Part shown: piece by piece, positions 24,883-25,389 of the stretch
Layout of the letters: every line of letters begins with the position of its first letter
How positions within the stretch are numbered: position 1 is the stretch's first letter
Assembly: GCF_045037415.1 (NCBI RefSeq)
Contig: NZ_CP173438.1
Length of the DNA stretch: 64,000 bases
Reading direction: 5' to 3' (one strand)
Origin: Escherichia coli
GTDB lineage: Bacteria > Pseudomonadota > Gammaproteobacteria > Enterobacterales > Enterobacteriaceae
The notes under the pieces: generated by a model
Database searches by the model: none
The model's input: only the letters and a program-made list of their open reading frames with translations
What the model was told of the DNA's origin: nothing
Position numbers and translations under genes: made by a program

Positions 24883-25389
24883 CTAGCTAAAGATGGCTTG
24901 CCAACGGCAAAATGCAGAACGATGTCTGTCGGTCCATTGGGTGCAAATAACATAGGTTTTTTCATCTCGCTGGGCCACTTTAGTGGTGGAGTAGCGGTTT
25001 CGCTCTTTGGCATCTTTGGCTGCACTGCGAATGTCTTCTGGCCGTGATGATTTAGCCAGTTTGAGCACGGGGAATGACAACCCAAAAATGTTGCGACAAT
25101 AGGTTAGCTGCGTGAGGTTTTCTATTTCACTCAGTGGTAGAGCATGTTCAACCAAGTCTTGGATAGCTTCGGTTATCTCTGCATTGCTGATATTGTGTTG
25201 CGTTTGTGCAACTTCCCGTGTCTCTACTTCATTTTCAAGAGCAACAGAAAACGGAAAACCTTTGGCTTGAACGGATTTAGCTAAAAAGACGTTAATAGCC
25301 TGCTCAATAGGTAAGCCCAACTCAGCAAAGATACTCGTGGCTTTTTCAAGCAGTTGAGGGTCTATATTGGTTGCCTTCATATGACTCAC
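24883..25389 (-). CDS. RelB/DinJ-like antitoxin-fold protein with an extra C-terminal region; no cognate toxin gene adjacent
   Basis: N-terminal ...LEKATSIFAELGLPIEQAINVFLAKSVQAKGFPF resembles DinJ; ends 68 bp upstream of hsdM on the same strand. Confidence 0.45.
   Translation of the reverse strand: MSHMKATNIDPQLLEKATSIFAELGLPIEQAINVFLAKSVQAKGFPFSVALENEVETREVAQTQHNISNAEITEAIQDLVEHALPLSEIENLTQLTYCRNIFGLSFPVLKLAKSSRPEDIRSAAKDAKERNRYSTTKVAQRDEKTYVICTQWTDRHRSAFCRWQAIFS

Follow-up and report, generated by a model that had tools for sequence, protein, structure and literature searches.

How bacteria keep defence islands silent, and how they switch them on, is poorly understood, and only a few families of regulators (C-proteins, BrxR/CapW, CapH/P and RptR) have been characterized. 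C-proteins, which are tied to type II restriction-modification (R-M), are Xre-type helix-turn-helix (HTH) factors of ~80 aa that activate and then repress. BrxR/CapW (winged HTH (wHTH)-WYL-WCX), CapH/CapP and CapS/CapK are leader genes of diverse defence operons that couple a DNA-binding domain to a sensor module. A small repressor at the head of an island carrying type I R-M defence has been established experimentally in RptR, a 79-aa, all-helical dimer with TAGCTA repeats as its site that represses a type I R-M/DarTG2 island in enteropathogenic Escherichia coli (EPEC) (PMC12255303). For the antitoxin RelB, a recognition core, [A/T]TGT[A/C]A, has been defined experimentally, with four repeats in E. 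coli relO (PMC2812701). Here, we describe a gene on the minus strand of a 64,000-nt stretch of E. coli DNA (contig NZ_CP173438.1; the whole stretch is hereafter termed the window), located just upstream of the type I R-M gene hsdM and with a product, referred to below as the regulator, that is probably a two-domain transcription factor controlling the defence operon that it heads.

The regulator is most likely the transcriptional switch of the operons in which it occurs, because a conserved two-domain family with its own palindromic operator heads many different anti-phage operons. The original prediction, made from the letters of the window, had listed control of the R-M operon as one possibility, and this is now supported by family members leading defence operons in every locus examined and by the conserved operator. 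It had also placed a 168-aa open reading frame (ORF) at 24883-25389 upstream of hsdM on the same strand; the ORF list agrees (24883..25389, minus strand, 168 aa counted from a GTG), while RefSeq and all homologues favour the ATG at 25380 and thus a protein of 165 aa (WP_000648433.1), and the gap to hsdM is 67 nt (24816-24882) rather than 68 bp. With these small corrections to start codon and gap length the observation as a whole is confirmed, and the ORF is a genuine gene. The gene and the parts of its product are:

24883..25380, minus strand: regulator gene, 165 aa from the ATG, alternative GTG start at 25389 (ORF list, RefSeq, 53 homologues, family alignment A2)
25237..25380, minus strand: DNA-binding domain at the N-terminus, a ribbon-helix-helix (RHH) of RelB/DinJ type, residues ~1-48 (Pfam, DinJ profile match, AlphaFold (AF2) helices)
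25186..25236, minus strand: acidic linker, residues ~49-65, predicted disordered and poorly conserved, with gapped, variable columns in A2; pI 4.5
24886..25185, minus strand: C-terminal globular domain (C-domain), residues ~66-165, AF2 confidence (pLDDT) 94.8, found on other N-termini; alignment A1

Set beside the described systems, the regulator appears from its sequence to be analogous to C-proteins, RptR and BrxR/CapW but unrelated to them; what seems new is an antitoxin-type RHH joined to an undescribed domain in a defence-operon leader. With RptR it shares the position of a small head gene in a type I R-M operon with embedded defence genes, a predicted role as promoter-proximal repressor and conservation in Gammaproteobacteria, whereas its length of 165 aa, its RHH plus extra domain with an unrelated fold, and a family that also heads non-R-M systems set it apart. 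Measured against RptR as described (PMC12255303), identity with that protein is ruled out by length, fold and binding site, and no TAGCTA occurs in the regulator promoter region (25381-25597). The hexamer is present at 24884-24889 (at the stop codon) and 25278-25283 (within the regulator coding region), with ten occurrences in the window, probably by chance.

BrxR/CapW, CapH/CapP and CapS/CapK likewise lead defence operons and have spread in modular fashion across systems; the regulator differs in having an RHH rather than a wHTH or HTH, a second domain other than WYL, and a sensing function that is only putative. Pfam gave no match to WYL, WHD_BrxR or BrxR_CTD in the regulator protein; in Vibrio, loci L007 and L008 contain a true BrxR gene at another position. 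Like C-proteins, the regulator is a small factor encoded just upstream of R-M genes, with palindromic boxes in its own promoter and predicted autoregulation. Unlike them, it carries an RHH (Pfam and NCBIfam give only a RelB/DinJ-type RHH and no Xre-type HTH), accompanies several defence classes and has an operator position suggestive of pure repression. MAD1, the HTH leader of MADS, is ~49 aa long and lacks the C-domain; a C-domain homologue, P0117, carries a MAD1/excisionase-type HTH in place of the RHH, so that the C-domain appears to be combined with other defence-leader DNA-binding modules as well.

An antitoxin-type N-terminal domain without a toxin

The resemblance of the N-terminal half to RelB/DinJ antitoxins, first noticed from the translation, is borne out by profile matches. 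Residues 7-70 align with Pfam RelB at 24.5 bits (E 2.6e-5; gathering score 22.4), TIGR02384 RelB_DinJ reaches 41 bits, below its cut-off of 45.65, and a family profile compared with the PDB matches the DinJ structures 9lew, 4q2u and 4ml0 over residues 3-52 only, with the AF2 RHH helices at residues 8-20 and 25-40. Homology to RelB/DinJ is limited to the first ~50 residues of the regulator: the DinJ alignment ends at residue ~52 to 65, the linker has a pLDDT < 50 at residues 48-60 (AF2), and residues 66-165 form a folded domain that replaces the toxin-wrapping tail. Hidden Markov model (HMM) searches of both halves, which the original prediction had proposed, thus returned RelB for the N-terminal part and no match for the C-terminal part.

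No RelE/YafQ-type toxin gene was found next to the regulator in the window, in keeping with the initial observation (window ORFs and Pfam), and a search for a toxin ORF hidden in overlap yielded none: the five small ORFs (42-77 aa) that overlap or lie just upstream of the regulator have no credible Pfam match. Nor was a RelE/YafQ/ParE-type toxin seen beside homologues in any of the 14 contexts examined. Of the hallmarks of a type II antitoxin, the regulator therefore has the RHH homology and lacks both the adjacent cognate toxin and the short disordered toxin-neutralizing C-terminal segment; because toxin and toxin-binding tail are both missing, it should not be filed as a type II antitoxin, and its RefSeq label ('RelB/DinJ family antitoxin') is misleading. 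Such labelling is a systematic mis-annotation that inflates toxin-antitoxin counts and hides a regulator. In comparison with E. coli RelB and DinJ, the regulator has a homologous N-terminal RHH and a predicted four-hexad operator with the RelB core in its own promoter, but it comes without a cognate toxin gene, carries a linker and a ~100-residue folded domain instead of a disordered tail, and is followed by large, varied defence systems.

A conserved family at the head of diverse defence operons

Sequence searches returned 53 close relatives, and 155 proteins passed E ≤ 1e-3 in an exhaustive search of representatives. Full-length relatives (159-181 aa, 37-90% identity, both halves aligning across the variable acidic linker in A2) are spread over at least seven genera of Gammaproteobacteria (Vibrio, Photobacterium, Shewanella/Parashewanella, Aeromonas, Dickeya, Pectobacterium and Lonsdalea). 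A protein kept at such identity across genera, never beside a toxin and with the DinJ tail replaced by a folded domain, is at odds with the decayed toxin-antitoxin pair that the original prediction had also considered. Searching species-representative genomes with the family alignment gave 10 loci, six of them with RHH-type family members; the same alignment found no family member in IMG/VR viral contigs, and a C-domain profile search of an indexed protein database added almost nothing. Within E. coli, the gene is present in 76 of 5426 complete genomes, always chromosomal and always ≥99% identical. The window is itself part of an E. coli chromosome, and its positions 24700-25640 match strain 219 and further complete genomes at 100% identity. 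Literature searches by accession and keyword, in a searchable library that is incomplete, found no description of the regulator family or of the C-domain.

In all 14 distinct contexts examined (14/14), a defence operon begins with the regulator, which is encoded on the same strand as the cargo. The distance to the next gene is often 0-90 nt, or the genes overlap, and in several loci the regulator stop codon overlaps the next start codon; because these overlaps occur and no terminator was predicted between regulator and hsdM, co-transcription is likely. The cargo that follows the regulator varies widely:

Window, L013, L018, L023: type I R-M with a KwaA/KwaB-like pair and RhuM (E. coli 1585m1 and two Vibrio genomes besides the window)
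L015: a different hsdM (uncultured Shewanella)
L005, L007, L010, L016, L017, L024, L039: SNF2(HKD)/DUF4391/N6_N4 methylase(/AAA_21+DUF4276)/Res (Vibrio, Photobacterium chromosome and plasmid, Lonsdalea, Shewanella)
L002: HEC-03B/A with RNA ligase (Aeromonas)
L014: PDC-S06 with Septu PtuA/PtuB (Parashewanella)
L012: RhuM alone (Dickeya)
L027: Schlafen-type helicase, beside Fic and AbiEi (metagenome)
L029: methylase (metagenome)

Wholly different cargo follows regulators with an overall identity of 83-85% (90-94% between their C-domains). Because such similar proteins precede unrelated genes, the regulator does not co-vary with a protein partner; a dedicated partner is disfavoured and a generic, cargo-independent role favoured. 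Three further observations concern the cargo itself. At L015 (10514-11033), a 520-nt gap separates regulator and hsdM, and part of its translation resembles an HsdM N-terminus; this fragment looks like a scar of cargo replacement just 3′ of the regulator cassette. A metagenomic copy of the window's operon (L035, 124-1395) has an hsdM 99% identical to the window's and an hsdS only 65% identical, which indicates, from sequence comparison, that the specificity subunit has been exchanged in an operon that is otherwise the same and led by the same regulator. Finally, on Vibrio and Photobacterium chromosomes (L007/L008, 1372-7879, and L016) the SNF2/DUF4391/methylase/Res cluster directly follows a BrxR-type WYL gene and an MksBEF/JetD (Wadjet-like) operon; since the BrxR-type gene precedes the regulator-led cluster, two families of leader regulator seem to share one island.

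A putative operator in the regulator promoter

Upstream of the regulator, the minus strand carries a palindrome embedded in the predicted promoter of the gene:

25386..25416, minus strand: putative operator of four hexads, inverted repeat I2 (alignment A3)
25416-25411 ATACAA, 25407-25402 TTACAA, 25400-25395 TTGTAG, 25391-25386 TTGTGA, minus strand: the operator hexads
25415..25420, minus strand: -10-like hexamer TAGGAT, a predicted promoter element; TAnnnT in every aligned locus, T and A invariant (A3)
25452..25460, minus strand: T-rich element TTTTTTGAC, ~30 nt upstream of the -10-like hexamer (upstream sequences)
24816..24882, minus strand: regulator-hsdM spacer, without predicted terminator or operator copy; weak fold, -3.6 kcal/mol

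The putative operator contains a 13-1-13 inverted repeat (25388-25414) and is laid out on the coding strand as TAGGAT-ACAA AAA TTACAA T TTGTAG GTT TTGTGA gtcat ATG, the hexads being grouped 2+2 with spacers of 1-3 nt and the first of them overlapping the -10-like hexamer. These hexads fit the RelB core, and their spacing differs from that of relO, which consists of two abutting 12-bp units. Across 11 aligned loci from eight genera (A3) an invariant core, TA..ATACAA…T….A.TTGT, is retained while flanks and cargo differ. The motif occurs once only per family locus, its last base 17-37 nt 5′ of the start codon; it is unique in the 64 kb window, where 0.05 occurrences would be expected by chance (shuffles), and in a metagenome-wide scan with a motif of 20 specified bases, 11 of 14 exact matches lay 14-15 nt upstream of a regulator gene. 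At the same position, palindromes of their own (TGTAC/GTACA) are present in the two family members that diverge most, and the T-rich element is common to a close subgroup (E. coli, Dickeya, Vibrio, Parashewanella). A wider regulon of detached operator copies was considered and rejected, as none was found in the window or the fetched loci and the three of 14 metagenomic matches without a regulator are attributed to chance in AT-rich coding DNA.

Because the putative operator spans the predicted transcription start and the ribosome-binding site, repression is suggested. The RHH domain, presumably as a dimer of dimers, would bind the four-hexad palindrome between the -10 element and the start codon, and binding would repress the regulator together with its co-transcribed cargo, here hsdMSR, the kwaAB-like genes and rhuM. 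The C-domain, acting independently of the cargo, would either sense an infection or stress signal that relieves repression or mediate a higher-order assembly needed for operator binding. Regulator, promoter/operator and ~40 nt of 3′ flank would form a portable cassette that recombination sets before many different defence systems on mobile elements; the first ~40 nt of the regulator-hsdM spacer (…CACTGATTTTT…) accompany the regulator even where rhuM comes next (spacer comparison). This cassette thus looks like a 'promoter plug' for defence cargo that is portable by recombination, which bears on how defence islands are assembled and controlled, and the family comes with an experimental handle: a defined 31-bp putative operator, a small protein and an E. 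coli host with an R-M, Kiwa-like and RhuM operon.

The original prediction had pointed to the regulator-hsdM spacer as the place to look for an operator. That candidate was rejected, as the spacer holds only a weak 10-nt AU-rich repeat over the hsdM start codon (with the -3.6 kcal/mol fold listed above) and no copy of the motif, whereas the conserved palindrome at 25386-25416 lies upstream of the gene. The AU-rich repeat itself, TAACTTCATT / AATGAACTTA on the coding strand at 24807-24837, covers the hsdM ribosome-binding site and start codon and is roughly kept in Vibrio, with a weak predicted RNA structure. Rfam returned a single sub-threshold match to a plant miRNA, which we regard as noise.

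A mobile C-terminal domain

The C-domain folds, according to AlphaFold, as a compact α/β unit (residues 66-164) with the conserved motifs FPvLK, D..GxNRY, (S/T)QW and HR..F..W (consensus …EI..L….YcK..F…FPvLK…D..GYNRYY…YLlCSQW.e.HR..F..W). Nothing in Pfam, NCBIfam, PHROGs, PADLOC or the PDB matches it, and no library model covers it, so that its earlier description as unassigned stands. In the representative search the same domain was found on Phd/YefM-like N-termini, CopG-like RHH domains, MAD1/excisionase-type HTH domains, HNH nucleases and DUF6946, on unassigned N-terminal regions of ~200 aa (e.g., P0091, P0135 and P0167), and alone in some proteins. As judged from these sequences, it appears to be a mobile domain of no described family or solved structure. 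The term 'fusion', also offered in the original prediction, is therefore apt as a description, namely of a stable architecture in which an RHH is joined to a mobile domain that is found on other N-termini too. What is thereby defined is an uncharacterized, confidently predicted domain of ~100 residues that regulators and nucleases share with a McrB-like GTPase on mobile elements.

We regard the C-domain as a putative signal-sensing or assembly module. Nucleic acid is the leading guess as signal, because the domain has a basic surface and is fused to HNH nucleases and to a McrB-type GTPase. A bolder version, which we consider possible but rather doubtful, would make it an infection-sensing module that binds a nucleic-acid or small-molecule phage cue: on RHH, Phd-like and HTH partners it would switch on the downstream defence operon, and on HNH nucleases and the McrB-like GTPase it would direct effectors to the same cue. 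If this were true, bacterial immunity would have in this domain a second 'universal' sensor, one that is independent of WYL and whose fold lacks any solved relative.

Two of the other architectures deserve description in their own right. In McrB-family restriction enzymes, the N-terminal position normally holds a DNA-reading domain. A metagenomic protein of 935 aa (P0081) is a McrB-like AAA_5 GTPase whose N-terminus is taken up by two C-domain copies in tandem. At L025 (8001-9792) and L033 (1299-3066), two unrelated metagenomic mobile elements, a Phd/YefM-like protein with a C-domain is directly followed by a gene for a HAD-superfamily hydrolase-like protein of 400-416 aa, and at L033 an RNase_T exonuclease and an ADP-ribosylglycohydrolase follow in turn; the Phd/YefM-like C-domain protein and the HAD-like gene may be a separate two-gene module.

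IS1 and the gene lost upstream

Beyond the promoter, the window carries an insertion element and the stump of a recombinase gene:

25598..26365, plus strand: IS1, 768 bp (terminal repeats, annotation; junction count)
25531..25580, minus strand: 3′ remnant of a serine-recombinase (resolvase) gene truncated by IS1

The end of IS1 lies 217 nt upstream of the regulator ATG, and among the 76 E. coli carriers of the regulator gene, 75 have exactly this junction. In E. coli 1585m1, the same operon is located near tnaA without IS1, and a gene for a 207-aa protein with a Resolvase domain has its end 150 nt upstream of the regulator there. Window positions 25381-25580 (the 200 nt 5′ of the ATG) are 99.5% identical to 1585m1 and then break into IS1; because this identity continues up to the break, IS1 has removed the resolvase gene except for its last ~50 nt and has left the predicted promoter and operator untouched. 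The comparison with an IS1-free syntenic locus that the original prediction had called for thus identifies a resolvase as the gene lost, and its suggestion that IS1 had removed a partner toxin gene fails, as 1585m1 shows the resolvase gene at that place. The pairing of resolvase and regulator recurs in three metagenomic contigs and beside a Tn3 transposase on a Photobacterium damselae plasmid, whereas no resolvase was found beside the regulator in chromosomal loci of Aeromonas, Dickeya, Lonsdalea and Vibrio (post-Wadjet).

Alternative explanations

Several points weigh against a transcriptional switch. No paper mentioning the regulator family was found in the (incomplete) library, and the contexts number only ~14 that are independent, with just six family loci from the species-representative scan. 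The promoter is non-consensus, with a weak -35, and a simple sigma-70 scan called none here; internal promoters could drive the cargo independently, and the regulator-hsdM gap of L015 measures 520 nt. The function given to the C-domain is a guess, and its HNH, McrB-like and solo occurrences fit a DNA- or ligand-binding module. The poor -35 could in particular mean that the promoter needs activation, and a set of four hexads could, like C-boxes (summarized in PMC12255303), make switching depend on concentration. Yet a C-protein-like activator, or a dual activator/repressor, by which restriction would be held back once a new host is entered, strikes us as distinctly improbable: the operator sits downstream of the -10 and covers the start site together with the ribosome-binding site, as is typical of repression; in the type I operons here, the first gene is that of the methylase, so that delaying R needs no activator; and RHH antitoxin-type factors are repressors (PMC2812701).

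An antitoxin-like safety catch at the protein level, in which the C-domain neutralizes a toxic cargo protein (the candidate being RhuM) and the RHH merely autoregulates, would account for the Dickeya regulator being followed by rhuM only, for rhuM closing the same operon in E. coli and Vibrio, and for the Phd-like C-domain fusions that each precede a ~400-aa HAD-like gene in two unrelated elements and resemble a dedicated pair. We consider it unlikely, since rhuM is not in the readable cargo of most family loci (L024, read to the cluster end, has none; L002, L007/L008 and L010 were read in part), near-identical C-domains (90-94%) precede unrelated first genes, and the disordered tails with which RelB and DinJ wrap their toxins do not resemble a folded domain of 100 residues. 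The serine recombinase directly upstream in IS1-free E. coli, three metagenomic contigs and the Photobacterium plasmid with its Tn3 transposase, together with the many loci that lie within integrative elements, raises instead the idea of a regulator belonging to a mobile element (resolvase/Tn3 or mobilizable island) and serving its establishment or insulation, with the defence cargo an incidental neighbour. This is improbable in view of the Aeromonas, Dickeya, Lonsdalea and Vibrio (post-Wadjet) loci that have no resolvase, the operator and the tight or overlapping junction that are always on the cargo side, and the lack of family members in viral contigs. As for an orphan or decayed type II antitoxin that lost its RelE/YafQ toxin (e.g., through IS1) and has no role in the R-M operon, the RefSeq name, the RelB/DinJ-like N-terminus and the upstream IS1 speak for it; with no toxin gene in 14 contexts, small overlapping ORFs devoid of family matches, a conserved folded domain where DinJ has its toxin-binding tail, a resolvase rather than a toxin at the deleted position of the IS1-free locus, and a two-domain protein maintained across genera, it is very improbable indeed.

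The operon and its surroundings

The transcriptional switch that we favour would control, in the window, a co-directional block of six genes:

15848..24815, minus strand: co-directional defence cargo from hsdM to rhuM; the same operon also in Vibrio L013 and L018
22836-24815, minus strand: hsdM, 659 aa, HsdM_N and N6_Mtase (Pfam)
21550-22836, minus strand: hsdS (Pfam, RefSeq annotation)
18314-21550, minus strand: hsdR (Pfam, RefSeq annotation)
17760-18314, minus strand: kwaA-like, PADLOC KwaA 9e-16; 'hypothetical' in the annotation
16918-17760, minus strand: kwaB-like, PADLOC KwaB (DUF4868) 7e-14; 'hypothetical' in the annotation
15848-16897, minus strand: rhuM, RhuM family (Pfam, RefSeq annotation)

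Because the genes between hsdR and rhuM match the KwaA and KwaB models of PADLOC, a Kiwa-like system appears to be embedded in the type I R-M operon. The operon has a G+C content of 44.8%, compared to 51.6% in the core part of the window, which is consistent with import from a Vibrio-like donor; the kwaA/kwaB-like genes (16918-18314, minus strand) have 37-39%, below the remainder of the operon. The regulator locus belongs to an island that has integrated at selC (tRNA-Sec, 32525-32619); an integrase is encoded at 31036-32226.

Next to rhuM, RefSeq annotates a mobI(A/C) conjugative-transfer gene (window 15404-15790, plus strand; likewise with L001 and L023), and in E. coli 1585m1 the same block near tnaA is interrupted by an IS21 that separates the kwaB-like gene from rhuM. 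Together, mobI and the 1585m1 layout suggest that the operon arrived on an IncA/C-mobilizable genomic island. The window's copy at selC is a remnant that has been rearranged and now lies among IS elements, tia and a gene for a phosphoethanolamine transferase. Farther along the window, two 100% identical ORFs of 1134 nt (377 aa) lie 414 nt apart on the minus strand (11187-12320 and 12734-13867); since strain 219 has a single IS110-like ISEc45 transposase gene at that place, within a disrupted IS66 element, the window appears to hold an extra tandem IS copy.

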